Assembly: GCA_002747955.1 (NCBI GenBank)
Contig: PDQZ01000008.1
Span: 5,983-69,982 of the forward strand
DNA from: Candidatus Campbellbacteria bacterium
GTDB taxonomy: Bacteria > Patescibacteriota > Minisyncoccia > Phycocordibacterales > GCA-2747955
Reading direction: 5' to 3'
Length of the DNA stretch: 64,000 nt
Position 1 is the stretch's first letter. Each line of letters starts with the position of its first letter. The notes under the pieces are model-generated. The model saw only the letters and a program-made list of their open reading frames with translations, did not search any database and was not told the DNA's origin. The position numbers were made by a program, and so were the translations under genes. Below are positions 6,338-57,067 of the stretch, in pieces.

Positions 6338-9205
6338 ATGTCTATGACAAATAATTACAATCATAAAGAAACTGAAGATAAAATCAAAAAAAATTGGCAA
6401 GAAAATCAAGTTTCTCAAAAACTAAAAGAAAAGAACAAAAATGGAGAAAAATTTTATCTTTTAGATATGTTTACATACCCTTCGGCAACAGGTGTTCACA
6501 TGGGTCACGCTTTTGTTGGGTCTGTAACAGATGCACTTTACAGATATAAATCAATGAGAGGGTTTAATACTCTGCACCCTGGTGGGTTTGATTCTTTCGG
6601 TTTGCCTGCTGAAAACTTTGCTGTTCAAACAGGTATTCACCCTAAAACTTCGACTGAAGAAATAATGGAAAATTTTAAAAAGCAGTTTTCAAATGTTGGG
6701 ATTGATTATGAATTTCACGATGGTGTTATAACTTCAAGTCCAGAATATTACAGATGGACCCAATATCTTTTTGGAAAGTTTTTTGAAAACGGACTTGTTT
6801 ATAAAAAAAATACAAAAGCAAACTGGTGTGATTCTTGTAAAACAGTTATTGCAAACGAGCAAGTAGAAGGTGGAGTGTGTGAAAGATGTAAAACACAAAT
6901 TGTTCAAAAAGATATTCCATCTTGGATGTTTAAAATTACAGATTTTGCAGATGAGCTTATAAACGATTTAGACAAAGTTGACTGGCCAGAATCAACAAAG
7001 AAAAATCAAATAAACTGGATTGGAAAATCCGAAGGAGCAGAAATTGATTTTGATGTAGTTGAAAGTGAATATGTAGACATAAACAGAGACGGGGGAAAAG
7101 ACACATACCAGAACGGTGTTGAGGAAATTGAAAGACACAATGTGGTTGTAATTATTGAACACCCAGAAAAAGAAGAATTTTTATGTGTTAAATGGAAAAA
7201 AGTTGACTGGCAGGGATTTGTTACAGGTGGAATTGAAAACGGTGAAAGTGTGAAAGAAACTGCTTTAAAAGAAGTTGTTGAAGAAACAGGTTATCAAAAT
7301 CCAGAAATTGTAAAAGTTTATAACCAGTCTTCACACGGAAAGTTTTATCATGTTGGAAAAAAGGTAAATCGGTTTGCGCATTATAGAGTTGTGCATGTGA
7401 AACTTAAAGACTTAGAGCAAAAGGAAAGATCTCAAGAAGAGCAAGATATTGCAGATATTTTTTGGGTTCCAAAAAATGAGGTAAATGATTTTCTAAAAAG
7501 GGAAGATATGAAATATCCGTGGAGAGTGGTAAATGGGGAAAATGATTTTGGTCAAAAACTAAAAGTTTTTACAACAAGAGCCGATACCATTTTTGGTGCA
7601 ACTTATATGGTTGTGGCTCCTGAGCACAAACCTGTAAAAGAATTTTTAGAAAACGGAAAAATTCGAAATAAAAATGAGGTTCAAGATTATGTCAAAGAAA
7701 CAGAAAAAAAATCAGAACTTCAAAGACTTGAAGCTAAAGAAAAAACAGGGGTAAAACTTGAAGGTATTGAAGCTATAAACCCTGCAACAAAAAAACAAAT
7801 TCCAATTTTTATTTCAGACTATGTTTTGTCATCTTATGGAACAGGAGCAATTATGGCTGTGCCTGCACACGACGAACGAGATAACGAGTTTGCTCAAAAG
7901 TTTGGACTTGAAATTAAAGAAGTTGTAACTTCTGAAAACAAAAAAGAAGATAAAGTTTTCACAGACAAAGGAGTTTTGGTAAATTCAGAACGGTTTGATG
8001 GAAAAACTTCAGATGAAGCTATAGATGAAATTGTTCAATTTGTTGGTGGAAAAAAAGTTTCAAATTATAGATTGAGAGATTGGTCTATTTCTCGACAGAG
8101 ATATTGGGGTTGTCCAATTCCGATTGTTTATGACAAAAACGGTCAGGCAAAATTTGTGGGTGAAGAAAATTTGCCATGGACTCTTCCTGAAGATGTAGAT
8201 TTTGTTCCAGACGGAACAGCACCACTTGCAAAATCAAAAGAATTGAAAGAACGAACCCAAAAACTTTTTGGAGATGGTTTTACACCAGAAGTTGATACAA
8301 TGGATACTTTTGTTGATTCGTCTTGGTATTTCTTGCGATATCCTGATTCTGAAAATCAAGATGAATTTTGTTCAAAAGAAATATTGGAAAAGTTTTTGCC
8401 AGTTGATTTGTATATTGGGGGAGCAGAACACACTTACATGCACTTGCTTTACGCTCGATTCTTCACAAAAGCAATGAAAAAACTTGGACTTTTGAATTTT
8501 GATGAACCGTTTTTAAAACTTCGTCATCAGGGAATGGTTTGCGACGAACATGGAAAGAAAATGTCAAAATCAAAAGGAAATGTAGTAAATCCAGATGATG
8601 CAGTTGAAAGGTTTGGAGCAGATGCTACAAGAACTTATTTGTTGTTTTCATCACCGCTACAAGATGATGTGATCTGGAATGAAGATGGAGTGGTGGGAGC
8701 ATATAGATTTTTGGAAAAAGTTTTCAGACAGAAAAATAAAGTTGTAGATGAAGAGGTTTTGGAGGTTAAAAAAGAGCTTGCCAAGACTGAAAAGAAATTC
8801 ACACAACATATAGAAGATTTGAAGTTTAACACCGCTATTTCATTTTTGATGACATTTATAAACTTTTTGGACAAGCAGGAAAAAATTAATAAAAATGATT
8901 TTGAAGATTTTCTAAAAATGCTTTCTATTTTTGCGCCTTTTGTTTCAGACCAGCTTGCAGAGAAAAACTTGATTTTGGAAAATTGGCCAAAGTTTGATTC
9001 TGAACTTGTAAAAGAAGACAGTATTACAGTTGTGGTTCAGATAAACGGTAAAAAAAGAGCAGAGCTTGAAGTTTCACCTGAAATAAATCAGGATGAAATT
9101 GAAAAACTTGTTTTGGAAAATCAAGATGTTTTAAAATGGACTGAAGGCAAAGAGATTAAAAAAATTATTTATGTTAAAGGAAAGTTAGTTTCGGTTGTGG
9201 TTTAG
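6338..9205 (+). CDS. leuS: leucyl-tRNA synthetase with an inserted Nudix-like domain
   Basis: HIGH motif (HMGHAF), KMSKS motif, zinc knuckle CDSC...CERC, editing-domain VFTTRADTIFGATY; about 160-aa insert (aa 245-405) carrying Nudix box GGIENGESVKETALKEVVEETGY. Confidence 0.95.
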   Translation: MSMTNNYNHKETEDKIKKNWQENQVSQKLKEKNKNGEKFYLLDMFTYPSATGVHMGHAFVGSVTDALYRYKSMRGFNTLHPGGFDSFGLPAENFAVQTGIHPKTSTEEIMENFKKQFSNVGIDYEFHDGVITSSPEYYRWTQYLFGKFFENGLVYKKNTKANWCDSCKTVIANEQVEGGVCERCKTQIVQKDIPSWMFKITDFADELINDLDKVDWPESTKKNQINWIGKSEGAEIDFDVVESEYVDINRDGGKDTYQNGVEEIERHNVVVIIEHPEKEEFLCVKWKKVDWQGFVTGGIENGESVKETALKEVVEETGYQNPEIVKVYNQSSHGKFYHVGKKVNRFAHYRVVHVKLKDLEQKERSQEEQDIADIFWVPKNEVNDFLKREDMKYPWRVVNGENDFGQKLKVFTTRADTIFGATYMVVAPEHKPVKEFLENGKIRNKNEVQDYVKETEKKSELQRLEAKEKTGVKLEGIEAINPATKKQIPIFISDYVLSSYGTGAIMAVPAHDERDNEFAQKFGLEIKEVVTSENKKEDKVFTDKGVLVNSERFDGKTSDEAIDEIVQFVGGKKVSNYRLRDWSISRQRYWGCPIPIVYDKNGQAKFVGEENLPWTLPEDVDFVPDGTAPLAKSKELKERTQKLFGDGFTPEVDTMDTFVDSSWYFLRYPDSENQDEFCSKEILEKFLPVDLYIGGAEHTYMHLLYARFFTKAMKKLGLLNFDEPFLKLRHQGMVCDEHGKKMSKSKGNVVNPDDAVERFGADATRTYLLFSSPLQDDVIWNEDGVVGAYRFLEKVFRQKNKVVDEEVLEVKKELAKTEKKFTQHIEDLKFNTAISFLMTFINFLDKQEKINKNDFEDFLKMLSIFAPFVSDQLAEKNLILENWPKFDSELVKEDSITVVVQINGKKRAELEVSPEINQDEIEKLVLENQDVLKWTEGKEIKKIIYVKGKLVSVVV

Positions 9206-9349: not shown

Positions 9350-9697
9350 ATGAAAAAATATTACTTAATTTTAATTTCTTTTTTGCTGCCGTACCTTGTT
9401 TATGCACAAGGGGGTGGTGTTGGGATCAAATCACCCTTTACACAAGAAGTTGGTAGCCTGGTTGATTTATTAAAAATAATTATAAAAGGAGTGACTTATG
9501 TTTCAATTCCAATTTTGGTTTTGGCATTTATCTATTCAGGTTTCATGTTTATTAAAGCCCAGGGGGATACAAATGAATTGGGTCGAGCAAAAAAGATTTT
9601 AATTACAACTGTTGTGGCGGCAATGTTAATTTTAGGATCAAATGTAATTCTAACTATGATTTCAGATACAGCTGATGCAATTTTGACAACTTCTTAA
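9350..9697 (+). CDS. small secreted two-TM protein, TrbC/VirB2-pilin-like fold
   Basis: signal peptide MKKYYLILISFLLPYLVYA then two hydrophobic helices; homologous to C-terminus of 47269-48426 product (shared YSGF/YTGF-x-FI-A-G-AKK pattern). Confidence 0.55.
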   Translation: MKKYYLILISFLLPYLVYAQGGGVGIKSPFTQEVGSLVDLLKIIIKGVTYVSIPILVLAFIYSGFMFIKAQGDTNELGRAKKILITTVVAAMLILGSNVILTMISDTADAILTTS

Positions 9698-9716: not shown

Positions 9717-10421
9717 ATGAATAATAATAATTTTTCAATCAAAACACAAGACTTCGAAGGACCTTTCGATATTTTGTTGGACTTGATTTTAAAGAAAAAA
9801 CTTTCTGTAAACGATCTTTCTTTGGCTCAAATTACAGATGAGTATATTTTGTATGTGAAAAACAATGAGTTTGTCCTAAAGGACGCAGCTTCGTTTGTTT
9901 TGGTTGCGTCAACTTTAATGTTTTTAAAGTCAAAATCACTTTTGCCACATTTAGTTTTTGAAAGTGAAGAAAAAGAAAATGTAGATGAGCTTAAAAAAAG
10001 ACTTTTATTTTTATCAGAAATCAAAAAAGTTTCAGAAAAAATCAAAAGTAAATTTCAAAAAAATATTTTGTACAAAAGGAAATTTAAAAGAAAAGTTGAA
10101 ATTTCTTTCAGGCCAGATGACAATATTACTTTAAAAAACATGTTGCTTTCTTTGGATAACTTGGTTGCAAATTCTCCTTTGAAAACAGAAATTCCAAAGG
10201 TGGAAGTTCAAAAAGTAAAGTCCTTAAAAGAAGTAATGAACGAAGTTCAAGAAAGAATCAATAGATTTTTAAAAATCAACTTCAAAGAAATAGTTCAGGG
10301 CGGAAATAAAAAAGAAGTCTCAGTTTCATTTTTAGCAATTTTAGAGCTTTTTAGAAATGGGGAAGTAAATCTTTTTCAGAATGAGGCATTTGGCAACATC
10401 GAGATTGAAAAAACAAAATAA
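9717..10421 (+). CDS. scpA: segregation and condensation protein A
   Basis: N-terminal FEGPFDILLDLILKKKLSVNDLSLAQITDEY typical of ScpA kleisin. Confidence 0.8.
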   Translation: MNNNNFSIKTQDFEGPFDILLDLILKKKLSVNDLSLAQITDEYILYVKNNEFVLKDAASFVLVASTLMFLKSKSLLPHLVFESEEKENVDELKKRLLFLSEIKKVSEKIKSKFQKNILYKRKFKRKVEISFRPDDNITLKNMLLSLDNLVANSPLKTEIPKVEVQKVKSLKEVMNEVQERINRFLKINFKEIVQGGNKKEVSVSFLAILELFRNGEVNLFQNEAFGNIEIEKTK

Positions 10422-10545
10422 AAATTTGAAAAATTGGCGGATTGCTTCGTTGTCTTCATAAAAAAAATTTCTCAACGTAATAAAACATACGTATCCAATT
10501 TTTTTACTCGACGCCTCGCACTCCACTTAATTTATTAAGTTTTTA
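10420..10545 (+). repeat. MITE-like repeat family A, copy A2 (left flank of SPFH cassette)
   Basis: reverse complement recurs at 12336-12452 nearly base for base. Confidence 0.7.
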
Positions 10546-10579
10546 CTACAAAAGTTTTATGAGAAAATAATTTTTAAAA

Positions 10580-10622
10580 ACCCCGATTTTGACAAACACA
10601 ACCACACAATTAAAATCGGGTT
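10580..10622. repeat. hairpin family C copy (stem CCCGATTTT, loop GACAAACACAACCACACAATT)
   Basis: conserved ACAACCAC loop motif. Confidence 0.5.
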
Positions 10623-10775
10623 TTTTAAAAATTTAAGCACTTGACAAATATTACATTTACATTAAAATAGTGAATGGAGAAATTTTTTGTATACAAAAAA
10701 TTGCTGGAAAGCTTCGCTTTCCAGCAAAGTATATTAAAAGATTTCATTTTTTAGTTCTTTATTAGGAGAATTTAA

Positions 10776-11699
10776 ATGAGAAGTTTAAAAAATTTTTTAA
10801 CTTTATCTTTTTTGGCGGTCACCGCTTTTGGTTTAACCGGATGTGGAAAGGTGGTCGAAATACCACCAGCTCATGTTGGTAAATTATCAACACCAAACGG
10901 ATTACAAGAGGGAGTTATTCCTCCTAGTAAAATTAGGTTGAGTAATCTTTGCATAACTTGCGACAGCATTATTTTAGCTGAAGCATCCGACTATCCTATT
11001 TCCGATAGTTTAAAAATATATATGCCAAAAGATGAACTAAACCTAGATGTCGATGTAAGGGGAACCGTTACAATTTCAGCAGAAAAAAGTAACATTGACC
11101 AGGTTTTTGATCGCGTTACAGCTCAGCCAACTCAATCAGAAAGAGTAAATATAATACCGCTTTCTAGTGTGTATAAAATTTACGCAGAGCCTGTAATTAG
11201 AGAAGTTGTTCGCTCTTCTTTGACCAGGTATACAATTTCCCAGGTTATGGGGGATCGTGCTAAGGTTTCTGATGAGTTGATGAAAGAAATCAGAAGAAAA
11301 CTTTCATCAACACCCATAACTGTGAAACAGCTGGGGCTTGCTGATGTGCAACCACCCGAGGTCATTATTAAAGCCCGTGAGGCTGCCAAAGAGCGTGAAA
11401 TTGCAATTCAAAGAGCTGAAGCCGATAAGCAGGTTAAATTGAAGGAAGCTGAAGCTGCACTTGAAGTTGCTAAAAAGCAGCAGCAAGTGGACTTGAAAGA
11501 AGCCGAAACACAAGTTCTTGTCAATAAGAAGTTGGCGGAAGGCGTGAATCAAGCTTTTGTAACTCAGCGCTGGTTAAAAGTAATGGATCAGATGTCTCAA
11601 AATACAGAGGGTAAGGTGATCATTTTACCTTTTGAGGCCATCAAGAATCCAGCAATTTTAACTGGTGTTTCCAACAAGGCTTTGAAGGGGGTAAAATAA
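10776..11699 (+). CDS. SPFH/band-7 (stomatin/HflC-like) lipoprotein
   Basis: lipobox LTGCG after signal peptide; SPFH core and alanine/glutamate-rich coiled-coil AEADKQVKLKEAEAALEVAKKQQQ; AGGAG Shine-Dalgarno 8 nt upstream (rare in this window); GC-richer than surroundings. Confidence 0.7.
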   Translation: MRSLKNFLTLSFLAVTAFGLTGCGKVVEIPPAHVGKLSTPNGLQEGVIPPSKIRLSNLCITCDSIILAEASDYPISDSLKIYMPKDELNLDVDVRGTVTISAEKSNIDQVFDRVTAQPTQSERVNIIPLSSVYKIYAEPVIREVVRSSLTRYTISQVMGDRAKVSDELMKEIRRKLSSTPITVKQLGLADVQPPEVIIKAREAAKEREIAIQRAEADKQVKLKEAEAALEVAKKQQQVDLKEAETQVLVNKKLAEGVNQAFVTQRWLKVMDQMSQNTEGKVIILPFEAIKNPAILTGVSNKALKGVK

Positions 11700-12110
11700 A
11701 TGGATAATGTGTTAGCGCTGGGGGCGTTGTTTAATCTGTTTTTGTTTTTAATTTTTTTGATTATTGTGGCTTACGCAGTTTACATTTTTAAAAAAGTTAA
11801 AATTGCTACAGAAAACAATTATGACTTAGCTTCTGCTTTTTATAAACAAAAAGTACATATTGTAGTTTTTATTATTTTGACAGCAAGCTTTGTGTCTTAC
11901 CTTTCCATTCAAACAGCTTTTCGTCCTAAAAATTCAATTTCTCAAACCAATGCTGTTTTACAGCAGAAGTTGAAGAGAATTGATAATTCTACTGTTGGAG
12001 AATTAAAACCAGCAGAGGGAGACAAGAGGGACAAACAGAATAAAGGGTATTCCCAAAGAAACACTCAAGAAAATAAAGAGGCCATAGAGGCTTTTAAAAA
12101 CCTTGAGTAA
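11700..12110 (+). CDS. small membrane protein co-transcribed with SPFH gene (possible NfeD-like partner)
   Basis: two TM helices; start overlaps SPFH stop; GGGGG 8 nt upstream. Confidence 0.45.
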   Translation: MDNVLALGALFNLFLFLIFLIIVAYAVYIFKKVKIATENNYDLASAFYKQKVHIVVFIILTASFVSYLSIQTAFRPKNSISQTNAVLQQKLKRIDNSTVGELKPAEGDKRDKQNKGYSQRNTQENKEAIEAFKNLE

Positions 12111-12129
12111 ACAACTTTTTCATTTGTCC

Positions 12130-12204
12130 AGCCCTTCTGTCAGGAGGGGCTGTTTTTTAATGTAGAAACAAAACGCAATTTTGACGAAGTCAAAATTGCG
12201 TTTT
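12130..12204 (+). terminator. two stacked terminator hairpins (CAGCCC...GGGCTG+T-run; AAACGCAATTTTGAC-GAAG-GTCAAAATTGCGTTT)
   Basis: seen in sequence. Confidence 0.5.
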
Positions 12205-12226
12205 GCTAAAAATATTTTTCACAAAC

Positions 12227-12452
12227 AAAACTTTAAAAATGAGATACCTAACGCGGAAGCAAGCAAAAAACCCCGAGCCTTATTTGATATAAGATGAGGG
12301 GATTTTGTAACAAACAGGTTTTAATTGTATTTAGTAAAATTTTAAAAATTGGATGAAGCGCGAGGCGTCGAGTAAAAAAATTTGGATACGTATGTTTTAT
12401 TACGTTGAGAAATTTTTTTATGAAGACAACGAAGCGATTCGCCATTTTTAAA
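12227..12452 (-). repeat. MITE-like repeat family A, copies A3a (half) + A3b (inverted partner of A2)
   Basis: 12336-12452 is reverse complement of 10420-10545. Confidence 0.7.
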
Positions 12453-12458
12453 TTTTTA

Positions 12459-13502: not shown

Positions 13503-13596
13503 ATTTTTATTTTATATTGTTAATATATTTATTATACATAAAATAAAAAAATTTAAAAGCCTTAAATTTACTAATAGTTTATTTTTGAAAAAAGCC

Positions 13597-13651
13597 CATT
13601 TTCGCTCTTTTAAAATTAAAGTTGAGCGAAAATGGGCTTTTTTCAAAAATT
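13597..13651. repeat. long hairpin AAAAAAGCCCATTTTCGCTC...GAGCGAAAATGGGCTTTTTT (partner of 16805-16862)
   Basis: 20-bp stem; same stem with flipped loop at 16805-16862. Confidence 0.6.
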
Positions 13652-15041: not shown

Positions 15042-16781
15042 ATGGATACACAAAATATTCGAGATTACATTTTAGAAATGGATCTTTTAACAAAAGAAGA
15101 AGAAGAGAAAATAGAAGAGTTTATGTTTCAAAATGACAAAAACTTTTTAGATTCAATGTTCGAGCTTGATATTTTAGACAATCAAACTTTAAACAAAATC
15201 ACCGCTTCAATTTTAGGTACAAAATTTGTAAACCTAAAAGAAAAAATAATCGACTTTGAAACTTATTCGAAAATACCATTGCCAATTTCAGAAGAACACA
15301 ATTTAATTTGTTTTGAACAGAACGACAATTTTTTAAAAGTGGCTTTCAGTGATATTCTAAACATTCAAGTTTTAGAAGAAGTTTTTGCTCAAAATCAAAA
15401 AGTGGAGTTTTTCTATGCAGACAAAAATGAAATTTTAGAAAAAATCGCTCAATACAAAAAACTAATTGAGGAAAATGTTATTTTAAAAAATCAAAAATCT
15501 GTTTCTAAAATTTTAAAACTTGACGAGTTTGGTTTTAAAAATCAAAAAGATGTTCCACAAGAATACATCAACGACATTGTTTCAGACTTGAACACAGAAA
15601 AATTTGTCCAAGGACTTTTAGAACACGCCGTTTCTCAAAAAGCTGACTTTGTTTTCTTAACTCCATCTGACCAAGATATTTTAGTTTCTTTCAGAATTTT
15701 TGACCGATCTTATCAGATTATGCAAATTGATTTAAAAACTCTGTTTTCAATCGTTTCAAAACTTAAAGTTTTCTGTGATATAAATATTTTTGAAAAATCA
15801 CTCATTAAAGAGGGAAGCTTCAAAGCTGAAATTTTAGGCAAAGTTTACACGGTTTTTTTAACAATCGTTCATACAGATTTTGGAGAAGCAGTTACTTTAG
15901 AAATCACTCAAGACAAAAACTTTAAAGCAAATATTTTTGACTTAAGTTTAAAACAAAGACATTTGTTCTTATCTGCTTTGAAAAAAGATGCTGGTTTTTT
16001 CACTATTTTTGGAGAAGATGAATTTGCTAAAAAAGAAACTCTGTATTCATTTTTAGAAACCGATATTAAAAAAAACAAAGAAGTTTATTCTTTTGAAGTT
16101 AACCCGTCTTTAAATCTTTCTTATGTCAAACAAATTTCAGTGAACGAAAATGAAAATCTACTTCCTGTTTTTGAAAGCATTTTAAAAACAGAACCTGAAA
16201 CACTGGCTGTTGAAGATGTTAGAAAAACTTCTTTCCCAGCTTTGTTTAACTATACAAACTTTTCAAAAAAAGTTATTTTATCTTCAAATAAAAAAATCGA
16301 AAATTTTGTTCAAAACTTTCTAGATTTTGACTTTAACAAAGGGCAAGTGGTTAAAAACTTATCTATTTGTTTAAATCACACTGAATTTGGTTTGCTTCAA
16401 GATCAAAATACTAAAAAATATGTTTTGAAAAAAGATGATATTAAACTTATAAAATCATTTTTTACAAACGATCAATTGCAAGAACTTTTTGTTCAAAACG
16501 GTTTTTACAAAAAAAGAGTCTTTAGTTTAGAAAAAATTGACTTTTATACTAAAAAAACAAACAAAAAAGAAAAAAGTGTTTACAAAAAAGTTCAAGTTAC
16601 TAAAGGAATTTTTAATTTAGGTTTATTTTTAGAAAAATGTTTTTTGAACAAATATGATAAACTAAAAATTAAAAATGAAATCAAAAAGGAGGTTAAAAAA
16701 TCTGTTTTAGAAAACGCTTTGATTTTATCTGCTAAAAAAGTTGTCGATATAAAAGATGTTTTAAAATATTTGAAAAAGTAG
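15042..16781 (+). CDS. protein with GspE/PilB N-terminal (MshEN-like) domain, no ATPase domain
   Basis: N-terminal 140 aa resemble T2SS-E N-domain; no Walker motifs in remaining 440 aa. Confidence 0.3.
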   Translation: MDTQNIRDYILEMDLLTKEEEEKIEEFMFQNDKNFLDSMFELDILDNQTLNKITASILGTKFVNLKEKIIDFETYSKIPLPISEEHNLICFEQNDNFLKVAFSDILNIQVLEEVFAQNQKVEFFYADKNEILEKIAQYKKLIEENVILKNQKSVSKILKLDEFGFKNQKDVPQEYINDIVSDLNTEKFVQGLLEHAVSQKADFVFLTPSDQDILVSFRIFDRSYQIMQIDLKTLFSIVSKLKVFCDINIFEKSLIKEGSFKAEILGKVYTVFLTIVHTDFGEAVTLEITQDKNFKANIFDLSLKQRHLFLSALKKDAGFFTIFGEDEFAKKETLYSFLETDIKKNKEVYSFEVNPSLNLSYVKQISVNENENLLPVFESILKTEPETLAVEDVRKTSFPALFNYTNFSKKVILSSNKKIENFVQNFLDFDFNKGQVVKNLSICLNHTEFGLLQDQNTKKYVLKKDDIKLIKSFFTNDQLQELFVQNGFYKKRVFSLEKIDFYTKKTNKKEKSVYKKVQVTKGIFNLGLFLEKCFLNKYDKLKIKNEIKKEVKKSVLENALILSAKKVVDIKDVLKYLKK

Positions 16782-16804
16782 TTTAAAATTTTATAAAACT
16801 TAAA

Positions 16805-16862
16805 TAAAAAAGCCCATTTTCGCTCAACTTTAATTTAAAAAAGTGCGAAAATGGGCTTTTTT
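16805..16862. repeat. long hairpin, flipped-loop partner of 13597-13651
   Basis: AAAAAAGCCCATTTTCGC...GCGAAAATGGGCTTTTTT. Confidence 0.6.
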
Positions 16863-16941
16863 ATTTCCCACACTGTGATAAAATTAAAACAATAAAATGT
16901 CAAATATTGACAGAAATAATAATTAAATATATAATAATTTT

Positions 16942-18444
16942 ATGAATGAAGGATTTAAAAAATATGTTCAAAAAGAAAAAGAGGTTTTAAAGGAGGTTCA
17001 AAGCAAACAAGAAAATGCAACTTCTGATGAAACATCAAAAGAGACACAAAAACAAATTTCTGAAGATTTATCTCAACAAGAAAAAGATACTCAAAGCCTT
17101 GAAGAATTTTTAGAAAAAGATTTAGAAGAAAATGACAACAGAGTTACTCCTGAAAGATTTGCTGAAATAAGTTTTGAAGAACAAACAAAAAAAAGTTTAG
17201 ATATATTTGAAAATCAAATTGAAGAAAATGATAATTTGATAAATTCCGAAATAAACTTGAAAATTCAAGACCTAGAAAACGAACTTCAAAGTTTACCAGA
17301 TGACCAAAAACAGGAACACATTGAAAGTTTAAAGCAAGAAATTTCAGAAATGTTTGATCAAAAAATTAATCTGTACAGTCGAAAATCAAACGAAGCTTTA
17401 GACTTGATTGCTCAAAACTACGAACCAACAAATGAAGACGCTTTAGAAGATCAAAATTTTTACCAAAACTCTTTTGAAGCAAAAAAACAAGCATATATTG
17501 AATCCCAAACAAAACAACAAGAAACAATTATTCAAAATCTTGATAGTTTACTTATTCCAGACAAAAAAGATCAAGCAGACTCACTTGGTGAAGGAGTTTT
17601 AGACGCAAAAGATTTTCCGCCCACTCCAAAACCAATTGACCTAAATTATGTTTCACAGAAAGCTTTAGAAAAATTTCAAAACGAAATGGATGTTTATTTA
17701 AAAGCTGATATTTCAAAAATAGGAGAAGACGGAAAAAAAGAAATTTCAAAGATTTATCAAAAACTTAAAAATGGAACTTTTGAAGACAAAAAGCAAGAAC
17801 AAGACGCGCAAAATCTTATTCAAGAAATAGAAAAAAATTTTGATTTTGCTAAAAAAAGTCAAGATATTCCAGAAAATTGTAAATCTTTAAATTTAAAAAA
17901 CAACATAGAAAATCAAGAAGATAACACAGACAGCACAAACAACCAAAATCAACCTTTTCCAGAAGAAGGTTTTAAAAAATCTTTCAAAAACACTTTTTCA
18001 GGAATGGCTAAAAGTGCAGAAAAAGATCTAGAAGTTTTCAAGGAGGTTTTTGATACCCATGACAAAATTTTGCAAGAAACTGTTCAAAAAATTGAAGGTT
18101 TTGTAAACGATGAAAACGGTACAATTTTAGATAAAATGAAAAGAATGCCACAAAAGAGCCTTTATCTTGCAGGGGCAGCGTCTGGGGGTATGGCAGGTTT
18201 TGGTTTAAAAAGTTTAACTACTTTAGGAAAAACAGTAACATTGCCTTTAAAACACCCATTGAAAACAGCGGGTATTGGTGCAGCGGGGTATTTTGGTTTT
18301 AAAGCTTTAAAATTCATCTTTATAAAATCAATGCCTTATTATCTATTCTGGAAATTTGTTGTAAAACCAGAATTGAAAGAAAATGGAGCTTGGGAAACAT
18401 TTAAAAAATTCGGTAGAGTTAAAAAAGAACATTGGTGGTTATAG
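16942..18444 (+). CDS. acidic coiled-coil protein with Gly-rich hydrophobic C-terminus (hypothetical)
   Basis: E/Q/K-rich, C-terminal GAASGGMAGFGLK... Confidence 0.4.
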   Translation: MNEGFKKYVQKEKEVLKEVQSKQENATSDETSKETQKQISEDLSQQEKDTQSLEEFLEKDLEENDNRVTPERFAEISFEEQTKKSLDIFENQIEENDNLINSEINLKIQDLENELQSLPDDQKQEHIESLKQEISEMFDQKINLYSRKSNEALDLIAQNYEPTNEDALEDQNFYQNSFEAKKQAYIESQTKQQETIIQNLDSLLIPDKKDQADSLGEGVLDAKDFPPTPKPIDLNYVSQKALEKFQNEMDVYLKADISKIGEDGKKEISKIYQKLKNGTFEDKKQEQDAQNLIQEIEKNFDFAKKSQDIPENCKSLNLKNNIENQEDNTDSTNNQNQPFPEEGFKKSFKNTFSGMAKSAEKDLEVFKEVFDTHDKILQETVQKIEGFVNDENGTILDKMKRMPQKSLYLAGAASGGMAGFGLKSLTTLGKTVTLPLKHPLKTAGIGAAGYFGFKALKFIFIKSMPYYLFWKFVVKPELKENGAWETFKKFGRVKKEHWWL

Positions 18445-18516
18445 AAAAAATGAAATTTTATAATAAAAAACAGAAACTGTGTTTCTGTTTTTTATTATAA
18501 AATTTCATTTTTATCT

Positions 18517-19428
18517 TTACCATTTACTCCACTTTGAAATTAAAAGCATTAAAATAACCATTATTAAGGAAATAACAATAATCATTGTAAAATCATGTGG
18601 ATGACCTAAAAACAAATGTTTTTGCTTTGTTGGAATTGTAATGATTGTAATAAACAAAGTTGCTGGTAAAATTGAAAAAGTTGTGATTGTGAAAATCCTT
18701 GAAAGTCTGTGCATTTTAACGTTTAACAACGAATTGTTTGTGTCTCGGAGTTCGCGAAGTTGATCTTTGATATTTTCAAGCTGATCGATTGTTTTTTGAT
18801 ATGAAAGGTTTATGATTTCAATCCTTTTAATTTCTTTTTGGTCAAAGAAATCCTCAGCTGTTGAAAAGAAGCTTTCCCAAAAATCGTCGTGACTTCTGAT
18901 ATGTTTTTTAAAATCAATTAATTTTCTGTTTATGTGAGAAATTTCATAAACCATTTTTCTTTCATTTCCGTCAAAAACTTTTTTTTCAATTTCTTCAATT
19001 TTAACTTCGATTTTTTTCAATTCAGCAATTAAGTTTTCATATATTTTTTCAAAAAAGTAAATGAAGGTATTTGAAATTTTACTATTTTGAGTTTGCCCTC
19101 TATAAAAGTCAGAACCGTTGTCAAAATTTGCTTTGAATTTTTCAAGTCCCTTGTCTTTTTTGCAAACAAGCGAAATTAAATAATCTTTCCCTAAAATCAA
19201 TTTAATTTTATTTTTAATAAATTCATCTTTTTCCAAAAAAGGAACATCAACTGAAACAAAAAGATTACTGTAAGATGAAATAACTTTGTTTCGGTTACTG
19301 TCTTCTATAAACTTATTGGCAACATAAGGACTAATTTGGTATTTGTCGACCACCTCTTCTAGTTTATCTTTATCCAAAGTTGAAAATTCATACCAAGCTA
19401 TATTTCTATGAAAGTGTATTTTTAACAT
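18517..19428 (-). CDS. CorA-like fold protein (cytoplasmic coiled-coil domain plus two C-terminal TM helices; no GMN motif)
   Basis: architecture only; 303 aa. Confidence 0.3.
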   Translation of the reverse strand: MLKIHFHRNIAWYEFSTLDKDKLEEVVDKYQISPYVANKFIEDSNRNKVISSYSNLFVSVDVPFLEKDEFIKNKIKLILGKDYLISLVCKKDKGLEKFKANFDNGSDFYRGQTQNSKISNTFIYFFEKIYENLIAELKKIEVKIEEIEKKVFDGNERKMVYEISHINRKLIDFKKHIRSHDDFWESFFSTAEDFFDQKEIKRIEIINLSYQKTIDQLENIKDQLRELRDTNNSLLNVKMHRLSRIFTITTFSILPATLFITIITIPTKQKHLFLGHPHDFTMIIVISLIMVILMLLISKWSKW

Positions 19429-23106: not shown

Positions 23107-23115
23107 AAAACAAAA

Positions 23116-23150
23116 ACACGATTTTGACTTCGTCAAAATCGTGTTTTTAA
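23116..23150 (+). terminator. terminator hairpin ACACGATTTTGAC-TTCG-GTCAAAATCGTGT + T-run
   Basis: seen in sequence. Confidence 0.6.
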
Positions 23151-23179
23151 TTTTCAAAAATAAAGTGTATAATATTTAT

Positions 23180-23767: not shown

Positions 23768-23890
23768 AAAAACTTGAAAAATTGGATAAAGCGCGCAGAG
23801 ACAAACAAAAAAACCTCCAGAGGTATTTAATATACGGTGAGAAGTTTTTTTGTGCAGTCGACAAAGTTAGGCACTCATTTTTCAAGTTTT
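23768..23890 (-). repeat. MITE-like repeat family A, copy A4; terminal repeat overlaps murA stop codon
   Basis: AAAAACTTGAAAAATTGG ... CATTTTTCAAGTTTT. Confidence 0.6.
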
Positions 23891-25202
23891 AAATTTCTTC
23901 AATTTTTGCTCCGACACTATTTAATCTTTCCACAATATCCGCATACCCCCTTTTAATATTATAAATATCATTCAACCTTGACTCTCCGTTAATTCCCAAA
24001 AGAGTAATCAAAATCGCAGCAGAAGGCCTTAAAGCAGGTGGGCAGTTTATGGTTGCAGGTTTCAGACTCTTGTTTCCTTCAATTTCAATTCTATGTTTAT
24101 CGAGAAGCTTAATTTTAGCCCCCGTTTTTTTCAACAAAGTAAAATACTCAATTCTTTTTTCCCACATCCAGTCATGAATTAAACTTTTTCCCTCAGCTTG
24201 TAAACAAATTGGTACAAAAAATGGTAAGTTATCAATATTGATCCCAGGGTAGGGTAAAGCATGAATTTTATCAGGAAGTGCTTTAAGTTTTTTAAATTTA
24301 GAAATTGAAATATCAGCCAAAACAGTTTTTTTGTTATAAGACAAATACGTTTTTGAAATTTTAAATTCAATCCCCATACTTTCCATTTTCAAAATTTCAA
24401 GTCTTAAAAAGTTAATAGGACATCTTCTAATCACAAAATCTTTTGACTTTGTAGAAACAGCAGCCGAGATAAAAAACATTGACTCAACAGGGTCTTCGCT
24501 GTTGTAGACTTTAATATTTTTATTTATATTTTTCTTTCCATGAACGACAATTTTATCAGACAAAAATTCAATTTTAATACCCAAAGATTTCAAAAAGTAA
24601 ATTACATCCATAACCATATAATTTTGCTGTCCAAAGTGAATTGTAGTTTTTCCAGCAATTCCAGCAGCACAAATTAAAATATTTTCAGTAGCAGTATCAG
24701 ACGCCTCATACATTACAATTTCAGCAGGCTTTAATTTGTCTTTTGAAATATAATATCCGTCATCTTTAACTTTAATTTTCACTCCCAATTTCTCAAGCCC
24801 CGACTTATGAGCTGAAATTGTCCTTTCTCCCATTTTACAACCTCCCGCCTGAGGGATCTTAAAATTGTCCAAGTGATGAACCAAAGGTCCAATGGCCATT
24901 AAAAAAGAACGAATTTTTACAGCAGACTCTGCATATATATTTTTAAAGTTATATTTTTTAGGTGGAGTAAGTTCTAAAACATCATTTTCTTCTCCAATCC
25001 ATTTACACAAAACCCCAATAGATTCAAAAATTTCCAAAACTCGAAAAACTTCTTCGGTTTTAGGAATTTTGTGTAAAGTCGTTTTTCCTTTATTTAAAAG
25101 TGCTGCGTGTAAAAGCCCCATTGCTCCATTTTTGGAAGTGTTGGTGTTAATTTTTCCTTTAAGTTTTCTGCCACCTTCAATTTTTATATTTATTTTTTTC
25201 AT
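23889..25202 (-). CDS. murA: UDP-N-acetylglucosamine 1-carboxyvinyltransferase
   Basis: EPT-family; active-site region QAGGCKMGERTIS; ATG at 25202 preferred over GTG at 25220. Confidence 0.9.
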   Translation of the reverse strand: MKKINIKIEGGRKLKGKINTNTSKNGAMGLLHAALLNKGKTTLHKIPKTEEVFRVLEIFESIGVLCKWIGEENDVLELTPPKKYNFKNIYAESAVKIRSFLMAIGPLVHHLDNFKIPQAGGCKMGERTISAHKSGLEKLGVKIKVKDDGYYISKDKLKPAEIVMYEASDTATENILICAAGIAGKTTIHFGQQNYMVMDVIYFLKSLGIKIEFLSDKIVVHGKKNINKNIKVYNSEDPVESMFFISAAVSTKSKDFVIRRCPINFLRLEILKMESMGIEFKISKTYLSYNKKTVLADISISKFKKLKALPDKIHALPYPGINIDNLPFFVPICLQAEGKSLIHDWMWEKRIEYFTLLKKTGAKIKLLDKHRIEIEGNKSLKPATINCPPALRPSAAILITLLGINGESRLNDIYNIKRGYADIVERLNSVGAKIEEI

Positions 25203-25259
25203 ATACTTAAATTCTAGCACAATTACTTAATATTCAAAAACAAAACAAAAAATGTTATA

Positions 25260-27770: not shown

Positions 27771-27860
27771 TGAAAGCCCGAAATTTAAGAAGGTTTTTTG
27801 GAAAAAGGTAGAAGCGAAGCTTCTACCTTTTTCCAAAAAACCTTCTTAAATTTCGGGTTT
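27771..27860. repeat. long perfect palindrome, family B (copy B3), abutting tRNA-Arg 3' end
   Basis: GAAAGCCCGAAATTTAAGAAGGTTTTTTGGAAAAAGGTAGAAGC-GAAGC-mirror. Confidence 0.65.
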
Positions 27861-27865
27861 TCTTG

Positions 27866-28687: not shown

Positions 28688-28759
28688 ATTTATATTTTAC
28701 CATTTTTTTAGAAATAATAAATATTATATTTTATCATTTTTTATGGTAAAATATATAGT

Positions 28760-34034: not shown

Positions 34035-34121
34035 AAAAGCACGAATTTTTGGAAATTTCGGTTGCAAAAAGCATCAACTTAATTGATGCTTTTTGCAACC
34101 GAAATTTCCAAAAATTCGTGC
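34035..34121. repeat. long perfect palindrome (about 85 nt), B-like architecture (copy B7)
   Basis: AAAGCACGAATTTTTGGAAATTTCGGTTGCAAAAAGCATCAA-CTTA-mirror. Confidence 0.6.
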
Positions 34122-35816: not shown

Positions 35817-36593
35817 ATGAAAAATATAAAAGAATGTTTGGAGCCTAGATACCAAAGTACAATTAAATTTGTAATTATTATTATTTTGGCGTTAGTTTTA
35901 ATTGGTGTTTTAGCAAAAGACAAAAGTTATAACATCAACTTGTCTGAATTAAAAGACAACACTATCAGAATAAAAGGGGAAGCTGAAAAAATTGTTGCTC
36001 CCGATGTTGCTTCTGTTTCTTTTGAAATTACAAGAAAATCAAAATCAACAAAAGACGCCACAGAATATGTAAACAAAAGAATTAAACAATTAACAGACAT
36101 GCTTTCTTATGAAGGTATAAATCAAAAAGATTTTAAAACAGCATCATACAATGTTCATCCTGAGTATAATTATACAAAAGGCAAAAGAACTTTTTCAGGT
36201 TACAGAGTAAGTCAAAGAATTGATGTAAAAATCAGAGACCTTGATAATGTCTCAACAATTTTAACAAAAATAAATCAAGTTGGAGTTGATAATGTTTCAA
36301 GATTAAAGTTTTTCATTGACGACGACAAAGAGATCAAAGAAGAGTTAAGAAAAAAAGCAATCGAAAACTCAAAGCAAAAAGCTGAAAAAATCGCAAAAGA
36401 TTTAGGTGTAAAACTTGATGAAATTGTTGGATTTTCAGAAGAAGCAAACAGAGATTACGAACCAAGATATCTATCAAATATGAAATTGGCTGGTGCGAAA
36501 GAAGATGCAGTGGAGCTTAATCAAGCTGTAATTCCGGTTGGGTCAAATAAGATTACTTCAACGATTTACATTACATACAAAATCTCCAACTAG
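35817..36593 (+). CDS. SIMPL/DUF541-family periplasmic protein
   Basis: IRIKGEAEKIVAPDVASVSFEI...GYRVSQRIDVKIRDLDNV. Confidence 0.65.
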   Translation: MKNIKECLEPRYQSTIKFVIIIILALVLIGVLAKDKSYNINLSELKDNTIRIKGEAEKIVAPDVASVSFEITRKSKSTKDATEYVNKRIKQLTDMLSYEGINQKDFKTASYNVHPEYNYTKGKRTFSGYRVSQRIDVKIRDLDNVSTILTKINQVGVDNVSRLKFFIDDDKEIKEELRKKAIENSKQKAEKIAKDLGVKLDEIVGFSEEANRDYEPRYLSNMKLAGAKEDAVELNQAVIPVGSNKITSTIYITYKISN

Positions 36594-36596
36594 ACA

Positions 36597-36918
36597 AAAG
36601 CCATAAATTAGTCCACAACTTCGTTGACTTCATGTAAAAATATTTTCAACATACTACCAAGTATGTCTCAAATATTTTTCATTCGTCGCCTCGTTGTGAA
36701 TCTAATTTATGACTTTTTTAAAAATTGAAAAATTAGTGCTCAACTTCGCCGACTGCACATAAAAATTCCCTCACCGTATGTCAAATACGGCTCGGGGATT
36801 TTTTGTTTGCTTCCGCGTTATCCATCTTGTTTTTCAAGTTTTTCCGAAGCAGAAAGTCTGGTTTAGTCTCAATAGAAGCATCTAATTTCTGATGTTTTTA
36901 AAAAACTTGAAAATTATA
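36597..36918 (+). repeat. tandem array of about 2.5 family-A MITE-like units
   Basis: units 36601-36720, 36716-36848, partial 36849-36915; not CRISPR (units over 110 bp, no spacers). Confidence 0.6.
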
Positions 36919-38503: not shown

Positions 38504-40012
38504 ATGAATAATAAAGAACATTCAAGCAGACAAAAAGAAATCAGAAATCTAAGAATTCAAAAAATTAAGAATCTAGAAAGTTTGGGATTAAGCGCTTACT
38601 TAAATCCAAAAGACACAAAACCAACACACACTTTAAAAGAAGTAGTGGATAATTTTGCAAAATTCAAAAGGCAAAAGAAAGACAAGAAATACAAACTTGT
38701 AGGAAGAATCATGATCAAAAGGGGAGCAGGGAAAATTGCTTTTGTAAAGTTTTTTGATGGAACAGAATATTTTCAAGCAGTTCTACAAGCCGATGTTTTG
38801 GGTAAAAAGAAAATGAAAATTTTTGATAAAAATTTTGACATGGGAGATTTTGTCATTTTCCAAGGAACTTTATTTAAAACTAAAAAAGGTGAAAAATCTT
38901 TGAAAGTTACTTCATTTAAAATGGCTGGAAAATCTATTTTGCCACTTCCAGAAAAATGGCACGGTATCACAGACATTGAAGAAAAATACAGAAAAAGATA
39001 TCTAGACGTTCTGTCTGATCAAAATGCTTTTGATAAATTCAAAAAACGGTCAGAAGTAATTCGTGAAATAAGAAATTTTATGGACAATGAAGGTTTTTTA
39101 GAAATTGAAACTCCTATTTTGCAAAACCAAGCTTCAGGAGCAATGGCTGAAACTTTCAACACTCACCACAACGATTACAACCTAGACATGGTTTTAAGAA
39201 TTTCACTTGAAGCTGAACACAAAATAGTTATGGCGGGAGGTTATCCAGCAGTTTACGAGATTGGAAAAAACTTCAGAAACGAAGGATCAGATTCAACACA
39301 TATTCAAGAGTTTACGATGATCGAATGGTATAAAGCTTACAGGGGCCTTGATTACAATATTAAACTTACAGAAAAACTTTTAAAACACTTGGCTAAAAAA
39401 GTTATCAAAAAAACTGTTTTTGAAATTAAAGACGAAAACGACAAAAAAGTAAAAGTGGACTTTTCAAAAGAATGGAAAAAAGTAAAGTTCAACGATTTGA
39501 TTAAAAAATATGCCAAAATAGATGTTCAAAAAGCAACCAGAAAAGAACTTGAAAAAAAAGCAATGGAACTTGGTGGAGTTAAAAAAGAAATTTTAAAAAT
39601 GTCTCACGGAAATTTACTTGATTTTATTTACAAAAAATCAGCTCGAAAAAAATTGATCAACCCAACTTTTGTTTTAAATTATCCAGGAAGTTTAAAACCT
39701 CTTGCAATTCAAAACGAAGATGGAACATCAGAAGTAGCGCAACTTGTAATCGGTGGAGCAGAAGTGACAAACCAATATGCCGAACTTGTAAACCCACTTG
39801 TTCAAAGAAAACTTTTAGAAGATCAGCTAAAAGCTAAAAAGTCAGGGGATAAAGAAGCCATGGATTTCAACTCAGATTTTTTAGAAGCAATGGAATATGG
39901 AATGCCTCCAATGACAGGATTTGGAATGGGAATAGATAGATTGATGGCGATTTTTACGGAGCAGGATAACTTACGAGATACGATATTGTTTCCCATCATC
40001 AAACCTAAATAA
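38504..40012 (+). CDS. lysS: lysyl-tRNA synthetase, class II
   Basis: OB anticodon-binding domain, FRNEGSDSTHIQEFTMIEWY, GGAEVTNQYAELVNP, GFGMGIDRLMAIFT. Confidence 0.9.
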   Translation: MNNKEHSSRQKEIRNLRIQKIKNLESLGLSAYLNPKDTKPTHTLKEVVDNFAKFKRQKKDKKYKLVGRIMIKRGAGKIAFVKFFDGTEYFQAVLQADVLGKKKMKIFDKNFDMGDFVIFQGTLFKTKKGEKSLKVTSFKMAGKSILPLPEKWHGITDIEEKYRKRYLDVLSDQNAFDKFKKRSEVIREIRNFMDNEGFLEIETPILQNQASGAMAETFNTHHNDYNLDMVLRISLEAEHKIVMAGGYPAVYEIGKNFRNEGSDSTHIQEFTMIEWYKAYRGLDYNIKLTEKLLKHLAKKVIKKTVFEIKDENDKKVKVDFSKEWKKVKFNDLIKKYAKIDVQKATRKELEKKAMELGGVKKEILKMSHGNLLDFIYKKSARKKLINPTFVLNYPGSLKPLAIQNEDGTSEVAQLVIGGAEVTNQYAELVNPLVQRKLLEDQLKAKKSGDKEAMDFNSDFLEAMEYGMPPMTGFGMGIDRLMAIFTEQDNLRDTILFPIIKPK

Positions 40013-40132
40013 AACTTAAAAAATTGGCGACTCACTTTGTCGACCGCATAAAAAATTCCTTCACCATATATTAAATATGGCTCAGGAATTTTTTATTTGT
40101 CTCCTCGTGATTCATCCAATTTTTTAAGTTTT
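40011..40132 (+). repeat. MITE-like repeat family A, copy A6; perfect 17-bp TIRs AAAACTTAAAAAATTGG/CCAATTTTTTAAGTTTT; starts on lysS stop codon
   Basis: seen in sequence. Confidence 0.7.
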
Positions 40133-40149
40133 ATGATATAAGGATTGAA

Positions 40150-40247
40150 AAAACAAGCCCGAAATTTTGAAGCAAATTTTTGGAAAAAAGAACAAGCAAC
40201 GCTTGTTCTTTTTTCCAAAAATTTGCTTCAAAATTTCGGGCTTGTTT
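40150..40247. repeat. long perfect palindrome family B (copy B4)
   Basis: near-identical to 53379-53473 with compensatory arm changes. Confidence 0.7.
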
Positions 40248-40257
40248 TCAACCAACC

Positions 40258-40767: not shown

Positions 40768-40856
40768 GGAGAAGTGGCTGAGTGGTCGAAAGCGCGTCCC
40801 TGCTAAGGACGTGTCCGGGTTAAACTGGACCGGAGGTTCGAATCCTCTCTTCTCCG
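40768..40856 (+). tRNA. tRNA-Ser (anticodon GCT), type II with long variable arm, discriminator G
   Basis: GGAGAAG acceptor, anticodon stem CGTCC/GGACG loop CTGCTAA, T-arm AGGTTCGAATCCT. Confidence 0.8.
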
Positions 40857-41125
40857 CCGAGCACAAAAACCCAAAGCGACAGCTTTGGGTTTTTCCGTGC
40901 TCCGGCCGGAGAAGAGAGGATTCGAAAAGAGCGCAGCCCTGTTTTTTCTCTGCGTGGCTGCGTCCGAGAAAAAACGGCAAGCGGCGGGCCCGCGAGTTCT
41001 TAACGAACGACGAACGCAGTGAGGAAGTAAAACCCAAAGCGACAGCTTTGGGTTTTTCCGTGCTCCGGCCGGAGAAGAGAGGATTCGAAAAAAGCGGACT
41101 TTTCAAAAGTCCGCTTTGGTTTTAA
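40857..41125. repeat. tRNA-Ser 3'-end-derived inverted and direct repeats (two about 75-bp copies) plus segment shared with 57960-58030
   Basis: GGAGAAGAGAGGATTCGAA (revcomp of tRNA T-arm/acceptor) at 40895 and 41059; AAAACCCAAAGCGACAGCTTTGGGTTTTT hairpin twice. Confidence 0.6.
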
Positions 41126-47118: not shown

Positions 47119-47140
47119 TTTAAAGTGGTTTTTGAGAAAT

Positions 47141-47233
47141 GAAAGCCCGAAATTTTGGCAGAATTTTTTGAAAAAGTTGAAAGGCTTTGCCTTTCAACTT
47201 TTTCAAAAAATTCTGCCAAAATTTCGGGCTTTC
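47141..47233. repeat. long perfect palindrome family B (copy B5)
   Basis: GAAAGCCCGAAATTTTGGCAGAATTTTTTGAAAAAGTTGAAAGG-CTTTG-mirror. Confidence 0.7.
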
Positions 47234-47268
47234 TATTTTTTAAACAAAATTATGTTATAATTTTAAGT

Positions 47269-53366: not shown

Positions 53367-53378
53367 TGGTTGGTGAAA

Positions 53379-53473
53379 ACAAAGCCCGAAATTTTGGAGT
53401 AAATTTTTAGAAAAAAGAACAAGCGACGCTTGTTCTTTTTTCTAAAAATTTACTCCAAAATTTCGGGCTTTGT
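53379..53473. repeat. long perfect palindrome family B (copy B6)
   Basis: near-identical to B4 with paired compensatory substitutions. Confidence 0.7.
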
Positions 53474-53527
53474 TTCTGTCTATTTTCACCACTCATTTTG
53501 CCACCAAAAGTATTCCACAACTTATCA

Positions 53528-55170: not shown

Positions 55171-55344
55171 AGAAGATGGTCATAAATGACTTTATTGGTT
55201 GAAACAATTCTATAATTGTTAGACTTTCATCTGGAGTCTTTAAATCAGATGCGCTTATAGTAAGATATGCGACACTTCTAATTAGTCGGGGCACAAGAAA
55301 GATTTTTTTCTATAACCAATCACTAAATTACAATATTTTATTTC

Positions 55345-55480
55345 AAAAAACTGCAGAAATTGGCGAAAATCTTTGTCAATTTTATAAAAAAAAACTCTCA
55401 CCGTATATTTAATACGGCTCGAGATTTTTTTTATTCATTTCCTCGATTCTCATCCAATTTCTGCTGTTTTTTAACTTTTT
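55345..55480 (+). repeat. MITE-like repeat family A, copy A7 (TIRs AAAACTGCAGAAATTGG / CCAATTTCTGCTGTTTT with compensatory change)
   Basis: seen in sequence. Confidence 0.6.
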
Positions 55481-56417: not shown

Positions 56418-56454
56418 AAAGATAAAAAACACCGAAAGGTGTTTTTTATTAAAA

Positions 56455-57025: not shown

Positions 57026-57067
57026 TTTTTTAAATGCCAAAAGATTTTTTTATGTTAAAATATATTT

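Follow-up and report, generated by a model that had tools for sequence, protein, structure and literature searches.

A probably horizontally acquired SPFH-lipoprotein operon with Shine-Dalgarno-like motifs between two host-family repeats in a Campbellbacteria genome

A 64,000-nucleotide stretch of DNA from a tiny metagenome-assembled Candidatus Campbellbacteria genome (contig PDQZ01000008.1, positions 5,983 to 69,982; referred to below as the window) carries a two-gene operon for an SPFH/Band-7 lipoprotein and a small membrane-protein partner. The operon lies between inverted copies, C_L and C_R, of a short repeat resembling a miniature inverted-repeat transposable element (MITE). Horizontal acquisition of the operon is well supported. 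The best overall explanation, which we consider probable, is that the locus consists of two independent layers, a foreign SPFH operon and host repeats at the 3' ends of the genes outside it. According to this explanation, the core at 10.64-12.16 kb would be an acquired two-gene operon located upstream of eno, in a gap prone to rearrangement that scpA (+) and a lineage-specific lipoprotein gene (-) delimit. The Shine-Dalgarno (SD)-like motifs, higher GC content and atypical codons of the operon would be leftovers of an SD-using donor. The flanking repeats would be two members of a family of the host lineage, one placed after scpA (+) and one after the lipoprotein gene (-).

Origin of the operon

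Composition was analysed by GC content and codon usage, as the initial annotation had proposed, and the SPFH gene was the extreme case in both. Its GC content of 0.396 was the highest among 59 coding sequences (host mean 0.304, sd 0.032; z +2.9). The value at third codon positions (GC3) was 0.321 (z +2.45), and the excess at first and second positions (GC1, GC2) was modest (z 1.7 and 1.2). The synonymous-codon log-likelihood under the host model, a score conditioned on the amino acids, was -1.162 compared with -0.787 ± 0.086 (z ~-4.4), and no other gene of the window was as atypical. Deviation was milder in the partner gene, with a GC content of 0.321, a GC3 z of +1.8 and the third most atypical codon usage. 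The segment had been described as GC-richer with stretches of up to 48%; this holds for the SPFH gene, but GC content in 150-nt windows over the cassette peaked at 0.45 and the small gene was only marginally deviant. Ribosomal-protein genes had the lowest GC3 values (0.10-0.19) and deviated in the opposite direction from the SPFH gene, so that expression-linked bias cannot explain the deviation of the cassette.

The translation signals set the two genes apart as well. The host 16S rRNA (53680-55172) ends in GGATTATTTCAAAG (at 55121-55172) and lacks the CCUCC of the anti-SD motif; the E. coli counterpart is GGATCACCTCCTTA. A 5-mer SD-like motif at -20 to -5 preceded 2 of the 60 open reading frames (ORFs) of the window, the SPFH and partner genes, and none of the 58 others. 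The contrast in ribosome-binding sites noticed by the first reading of the sequence is thus real and statistically clean. A TAnAAT box whose end lies 3-10 nt (mode 6) upstream of the start codon was found in 27 of 58 genes, compared with 5.3% of background ATGs. The boxes often read TGnTAAAAT (examples at 2195-2234, 28720-28759 and 57028-57067). The spacing of the box has the appearance of a leaderless-mRNA signature, and most host mRNAs appear to be leaderless. The promoter-like site ahead of the SPFH gene would, in contrast, give a leader of ~100 nt, with a predicted transcription start near 10675. Because the host lacks a 16S anti-SD and appears mostly leaderless, the SD-like motifs of the cassette are probably inert here.

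That a subgroup of Parcubacteria has lost the anti-SD motif is already published (Tsurumaki et al. 2022, PMC9297842). The present host resembles those lineages in that its 16S rRNA lacks CCUCC and its own genes lack SD motifs. It differs in that two imported genes keep SD-like motifs, a case not described in that paper. No description of SD relics in anti-SD-less hosts was found in the literature searched. The host trait is therefore known, and SD fossils in an anti-SD-less host are the distinctive twist of this case.

A relative without the region was found in Logan contig L031. Its scpA gene (85% amino acid and ~82% nucleotide identity) is followed after 23 nt by the start of eno, which in the window is the downstream neighbour of the gap that holds the operon and a 347-aa lipoprotein gene. 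Position 772 of the contig aligns to window position 10423 and position 779 to window position 13655, and by this jump the intervening 3231 nt are an indel. It spans both repeats, the cassette and the minus-strand lipoprotein gene, which has host-like composition and a leaderless-type promoter. Synteny thus yielded a close relative lacking the cassette, as the initial annotation had suggested looking for, but the gap exceeds the repeat-bounded unit. The 347-aa lipoprotein had only four weak homologues in unrelated, non-syntenic contexts (L038, L039), so the order of events could not be polarised. Relatives of scpA at ~62% identity are followed by other genes and are therefore uninformative on the scpA-eno junction, and an enolase-based synteny scan of genome contigs found no relative. 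A 9-nt match, AAAAATTTG, that lies close to each end of the indel was examined as a possible target-site duplication and rejected, as it is the terminus of a palindromic element (13581-13650). As a separate observation, a gene for a 221-aa protein of the Y1 (HUH) transposase family immediately precedes scpA in two related Campbellbacteria-like contigs (L036, 1465-2130; L037, 1436-2101).

The SPFH protein has hundreds of homologues, and the search for the nearest ones revealed a patchy distribution across the Candidate Phyla Radiation (CPR) and Gram-negative phyla. CPR homologues were found in Nomurabacteria (67% identity), two Saccharibacteria (64-65%) and Sungiibacteriota (63%), and others in Achromatium (61%), Acidobacteriota (60-61%) and Magnetococcales (58%). 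Further carriers were Bdellovibrionota, Verrucomicrobiota, Planctomycetota and a Paracoccus plasmid. The nearest homologues (74-78%) occurred in two settings. In contigs of 42-47% GC, the neighbouring genes encode SspB, GST (SspA-like), TPR_21 (with a faint YfiO match) and GyrB/ParE-type proteins, a context that we read as Gram-negative and probably proteobacterial. In other AT-rich contigs (L045, next to uppP, and L046-48), the operon sits at other loci and the SD-like motifs are also kept. In a rough neighbor-joining tree the window protein grouped with the 74-78% homologues and was not sister to the other Campbellbacteria homologue (57%).

In three Saccharibacteria and Nomurabacteria genomes the operon forms a GC island: 0.58-0.62 against ~0.43 in L007 (6001-7954, SPFH plus partner), 0.53 against ~0.42 in L008 and 0.58 against ~0.47 in L006. 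An IS200 transposase lies directly downstream in L007, the only locus in which IS200 adjoins the cassette. L007 and L008 also have in common a TrmB-like regulator upstream of the operon. A search around the cassettes of L006-L010 revealed no bracketing flanking repeats. The operon of SPFH lipoprotein and partner with two transmembrane (TM) helices is a travelling module that was repeatedly exchanged among CPR and Gram-negative bacteria.

The window operon therefore shows the deviant composition, the absence from a close relative and the patchy distribution of a horizontally acquired island. Mobility genes or a tRNA target at this locus are lacking: ORF, Pfam and tRNA scans detected no integrase, transposase, IS element or tRNA at the cassette site. 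That the cassette came from an SD-using organism, as first proposed, remains the best reading of its foreign composition, of SD-like motifs facing an anti-SD-less 16S rRNA and of its absence from L031.

A native, vertically inherited operon would have to owe its composition to a coiled coil rich in Ala, Glu, Lys and Gln and its SD-like motifs to chance or another role, with a deletion in the L031 lineage. We regard this as unlikely. Carriage by many CPR lineages is in its favour, as are the closest cassettes in AT-rich contigs (L045, L046-48), one of which has a leaderless-style neighbouring promoter, the modest GC1 and GC2 excess and the lack of a host-like gene of the region in L031. However, the codon score remained the window extreme after conditioning on amino acids, GC3 was raised, and both cassette genes carried a motif found before no other gene. 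Identity to the other Campbellbacteria homologue is just 57%, and that sequence stands elsewhere in the tree; L045 and L046 hold the operon at different loci.

The flanking repeat family

Over 130-131 nt, blastn aligned 10419-10548 with the reverse complement of 12332-12458 at 89.2-89.3% identity (E 2e-41 to 3e-39); identity reaches 98% in a 45-nt core (10461-10505 and 12375-12419). The inverted repeat reported initially is therefore real. Its description as near-perfect was slightly generous, as the alignment of C_L and C_R contains four small indels and the inner 3' ends diverge. Each copy forms a long imperfect hairpin; for three of the four strands the fold z values ranged from -4.0 to -6.8. 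Alignment of copies placed the C pair and a B group in one family of ~123-nt elements. Their common layout starts with TAAAAAYTTGAAAAAT and an imperfect outer stem; an A run, the inner hairpin and a T run then lead to the return stem, and ATTTTTCAAGTTTTTA closes the element. A profile search found 10 full copies and one partial copy in the 64 kb. Within 571 kb of fetched loci, further copies were confined to three AT-rich contigs (L056, L062, L067), all from one metagenome. No element adjoined a homologous SPFH cassette (L002-L030 and L040-L048, among 68 loci).

The copies are positioned with respect to stop codons. In six cases (C_L, C_R, C_36.6, B_40.0, B_23.8 and B_63.4), the 5' end of the element overlaps or abuts the stop of a co-oriented upstream gene, the genes being scpA, the lipoprotein gene, 35817-36593, 38504-40012, 23889-25220 and rpmE (63192-63440). 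The TAA of scpA (10419-10421) forms element bases 1-3, the TAA of rpmE (63438-63440) the first bases of its element, and the TAG of the lipoprotein gene is followed by TAAAAA. The same placement was found outside the window at three genes (L062a, L062b and L067). Two copies are exceptions, one lying 175 nt after the 16S gene and one reversed (1866-1977). The tandem order of C then B after C_R matches the order after gene 35817-36593. This placement probably reflects a function as terminators or 3'-end modules, or else insertion at TAA/TA. Since scpA and the lipoprotein gene converge and the elements follow gene orientation, the pair is inverted by construction. An inverted C pair of this kind occurs in L062, where two convergent genes each have one copy, ~210 nt separate the copies and no genes lie between them. 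In a single alignment, the identity of C_L was 82% to C_R, 84% to L067 and 82% to L062a; C_L is thus no closer to C_R than to copies from other contigs and does not belong to a freshly duplicated pair.

The elements resemble MITEs in structure: they are short and non-coding, have terminal inverted repeats (TAAAAAYTTGAAAAAT / ATTTTTCAAGTTTTTA) and occur in many dispersed copies. Neither MITEs in CPR nor this stop-codon repeat family was found described in the literature searched. Correia elements of Neisseria and the ERIC/IRU elements of enterobacteria are intergenic, imperfect palindromic repeats of 100-150 nt. The present family resembles them in its length of ~123 nt, non-coding nature, nested palindromes, terminal inverted repeats of ~15 nt ending in TA and many diverged intergenic copies, here mostly just 3' of genes. 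In contrast to them, it starts at or within the upstream stop codon in fixed orientation, shares no sequence relationship with them and has so far been found only in this Campbellbacteria lineage. Two other assignments were rejected. The elements are ~123 nt and not 20-40 nt long as REP/BIME elements with RAYT would be, and the only Y1 transposase scored 30.9 bits against a REP_Tyr_transpos cutoff of 80. IS200 was dismissed as the source of the palindromes, its end hairpins being unrelated to the element.

When the element RNAs were folded, the strand antisense to the upstream gene was more stable in 9 of 12 copies, by a mean of 7 kcal/mol, an asymmetry of the G·U type; as evidence it was set aside as not interpretable. 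The window contains several other families of near-perfect intergenic palindromes of 65-110 nt (53377-53475, 40150-40248, 47137-47244, 27772-27862, 34039-34121, 18436-18522, 13581-13650, 16802-16866 and 40837-41096), and for a genome of this size the number of hairpin repeats is unusually high.

Composite transposons of the Tn5/Tn10 type and the MITE-bracketed integrons of Acinetobacter are known systems for bracketed cargo. The initial annotation had read the cassette as a composite-transposon-like or MITE-mobilised unit. A transposase acting in trans would then have used the C copies as ends and moved a 2.04-kb unit into the 3' flank of scpA. As in those systems, two inverted copies of a short repeat bracket foreign cargo genes, and a true 131-nt inverted repeat, terminal-inverted-repeat-like ends, multiple dispersed copies and the close kinship of C_L and C_R, down to a common CTA past the consensus end, fit the proposal. 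So does Logan contig L001 (1921 nt), which matches window 10469-12389 with both ends inside the repeat copies, although repeats of any kind produce contig breaks at their shared k-mers.

The evidence nevertheless speaks against such a unit, which we find quite unlikely. Each copy stands at the stop codon of the outside gene and in the orientation of that gene, like other members of a host family, and L062 has the same inverted pair with no cargo. In contrast to the known systems, identity between the two copies is no more than 82-89%, and neither is the unique closest relative of the other. Other host-type repeats (10569-10633, 12169-12205 and 12227-12306) lie inside the presumed unit. Neither a second copy of the unit nor a precise empty site was found in the window or the fetched loci: homologous cassettes lack the elements, and the gap in L031 does not match the repeat-bounded unit because it also takes in the lipoprotein gene. 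A single-copy empty site of the element was not recovered either. The TA at the element ends is part of the consensus of every copy and the flanks are AT-rich, so TA is uninformative as a target-site duplication. No transposase recognising the element ends was found in the window, where the only one is an IS200-type TnpA with unrelated end hairpins. The tests for a composite unit (recurrence, empty site, target-site duplication and transposase) all failed or were uninformative.

Both layers could be joined in a further reading, which strikes us as very doubtful. The palindromes would be an undescribed CPR-specific mobile family that inserts at TAA stops in fixed orientation and often supplies stop and terminator; one pair would have captured the foreign operon and could move it within Campbellbacteria, and selection would preserve the SD-like motifs in spite of the missing anti-SD. 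If true, selection-retained SD motifs in such a host would mean an SD-independent role for purine-rich leaders. Finally, an expression switch in which recombination at the 131-nt inverted repeats flips the 1.8-kb operon is extremely improbable: long-enough inverted repeats do flank a segment with its own promoter-like site, and L001 ends inside them, but repeated k-mers in general are expected to break contigs, no gene for an invertase or recombinase was detected beside the segment, only one orientation was observed, and flipping would not switch an operon that has its own predicted promoter and terminator.

The encoded proteins and the layout of the locus

The presence of an SPFH lipoprotein gene and a small membrane-protein gene between the repeats was borne out. 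The SPFH protein, identical to CSB11_01040 of a 152.5-kb contig, matched Pfam Band_7 (PF01145) at residues 84-220 with 37.9 bits (cutoff 23.6), and this family was present in 120 of 120 homologues among the matches listed. Its lipobox LTGC has the cysteine at position 23, which is kept in at least 90% of the sequences and suggests lipid anchoring. An AlphaFold2 (AF2) model (pLDDT 87) begins with a signal/lipobox helix at the N-terminus; the SPFH domain that comes next is rich in beta structure, and behind it lie a 60-residue helix (195-256) and a helical C-terminal region. Foldseek aligned it over its full length with subunits of prohibitin, stomatin, HflK/C and QmcA (E 1e-12 to 1e-8) and with those of erlin and flotillin, and a sequence-profile search of the PDB gave QmcA at 7.6e-11. 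The model and the Foldseek matches thus agree on the arrangement of cage-forming members, in which the SPFH domain leads into a long coiled-coil helix. Phage-borne relatives exist (PHROG phrog_200 'lipoprotein', 5.7e-31; five IMG/VR contigs at 38-52%), none of them close.

The 136-aa partner matched no Pfam or NCBIfam family, and it does not contain an NfeD (OB-fold) domain. Its gene lies directly 3' of the SPFH gene in all loci examined except L004 and is kept in 10 other loci. Reading of the sequence by eye predicts two TM helices joined by a basic loop, with a short N-terminus ahead of TM1 and a polar C-terminal tail after TM2. The tail is of low complexity with conserved motifs of its own: an invariant RPK follows TM2, and the tail has a conserved N..EN..A...F. 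The predicted topology would put the tail and the lipoprotein on the same side of the membrane, so the tail is a candidate client or organiser. By analogy with QmcA-YbbJ and HflK/C-FtsH, the SPFH protein would most likely form a membrane-attached ring or cage on the outer side of the membrane, around or together with this tail.

The pair resembles the QmcA-YbbJ and HflK/C-FtsH SPFH cages (PDB 8z5g, 7vhq and 7wi3) and the prohibitin and stomatin complexes in its Band_7/SPFH domain with a long coiled-coil helix, in its full-length fold and in an operon shared with a small membrane partner. Unlike in those systems, the protein has an N-terminal lipobox as its anchor and not a TM helix. The partner has the RPK...N..EN..A...F tail instead of the NfeD/OB domain of SPFH-NfeD operons.

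The features of the locus are collected in Table 1. Rfam searches of the repeats and the leader gave nothing meaningful at gathering or permissive thresholds, and PADLOC returned zero defence-system matches. A TrbC/VirB2-like pilin gene (9350-9697) adjoins scpA and a T2SSE/PilB-like ATPase gene (15042-16781) follows eno, so that genes of a pilus or DNA-uptake-type machinery are found near the insertion site. In the leucyl-tRNA synthetase encoded at 6338-9205, an inserted NUDIX domain (residues 268-388, Pfam 2.5e-15) separates the N-terminal catalytic part from the editing domain.

Table 1. Features of the operon locus and related elements, in window positions
Feature	Position	Strand	Remarks
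scpA	9717-10421	+	Pfam SMC_ScpA 9e-17; flanking-context gene
Left repeat copy C_L, ~123-nt nested palindrome, MITE-like	10419-10548	+	ends TAAAAATTTGAAAAAT...AAGTTTTTA; blastn, nhmmer, hairpin fold z -4.0
Indel segment absent at the scpA-eno junction of L031	10424-13654		3231 nt
Hairpin with G+C-rich stem, A and T runs on either side, bidirectional terminator-like	10569-10633	unassigned	91% similar to 59407-59438
Promoter-like site TTGACA-16-TAAAAT	10641-10668	+	11/12 consensus matches; putative promoter, from consensus match only
Perfect 12-bp hairpin in putative 5' leader	10701-10727	unassigned	terminator-like when read on the minus strand
SD-like AGGAG	10764-10768	+	7 nt before SPFH ATG
SPFH/Band-7 lipoprotein gene, 307 aa, lipobox LTGC	10776-11699	+	Pfam, AF2 model, Foldseek, GC/codon outlier
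SD-like AAGGGGG within SPFH 3' coding end	11685-11691	+	8 nt before partner ATG
Conserved small two-TM partner gene, 136 aa	11700-12110	+	two hydrophobic helices
Intrinsic-terminator-like hairpin with T run at operon end	12129-12152	+	
37-nt palindrome, host-type repeat	12169-12205	unassigned	related to 23112-23154
Partial B-subfamily copy (3' two-thirds) of the flanking-element family	12227-12306	-	tandem behind C_R, as at 36596-36842
Right repeat copy C_R	12332-12458	-	directly after TAG stop of minus-strand lipoprotein gene; fold z -6.1 and -6.8
Lineage-specific putative lipoprotein gene, 347 aa	12459-13502	-	host-like composition; within segment missing from L031
Listed sites of the repeat family	1866-1977, 10421-10543, 12336-12456, 23769-23890, 36596-36842, 40011-40132, 55347-55470, 63440-63560		
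IS200-type element, complete-looking	56440-57010		tnpA 56551-56973, NF033573 119.8 bits; subterminal hairpins ~56450-56475 and ~56997-57020

Weight of the evidence and implications

Several observations count against a foreign operon set between independently placed host repeats. With regard to the repeats, C_L and C_R are the closest element pair within the window and share three extra bases (CTA) past the family consensus end, and two C copies in neighbouring gaps are unlikely at random, given elements in ~8 of ~60 gaps. With regard to the acquisition, L031 is a single 986-nt contig whose gap could be a deletion there, and a host-like gene is missing along with the cassette. L045 and L046, which hold the closest relatives of the cassette, are from AT-rich genomes and likewise have SD-like motifs, so the direct donor may be another AT-rich, possibly CPR, organism, and the motifs of the cassette might be under some selection. 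The neighbor-joining tree of the SPFH protein carries no support values. Finally, the terminator function of the elements and the formation of a cage with the partner are features that we infer.

The case adds to three known kinds, the horizontally acquired island, the SPFH operon and the MITE-like repeat. The analysis brings out a Campbellbacteria repeat family placed exactly at stop codons. For annotation, the lesson is that in repeat-rich genomes inverted repeats round a cassette do not alone indicate a transposon. The operon provides a clean natural example of foreign genes in a bacterium that gave up SD initiation, in which SD-like motifs serve as a marker of import. It thereby poses the question of how an anti-SD-less, mostly leaderless host translates a leadered, SD-bearing mRNA.

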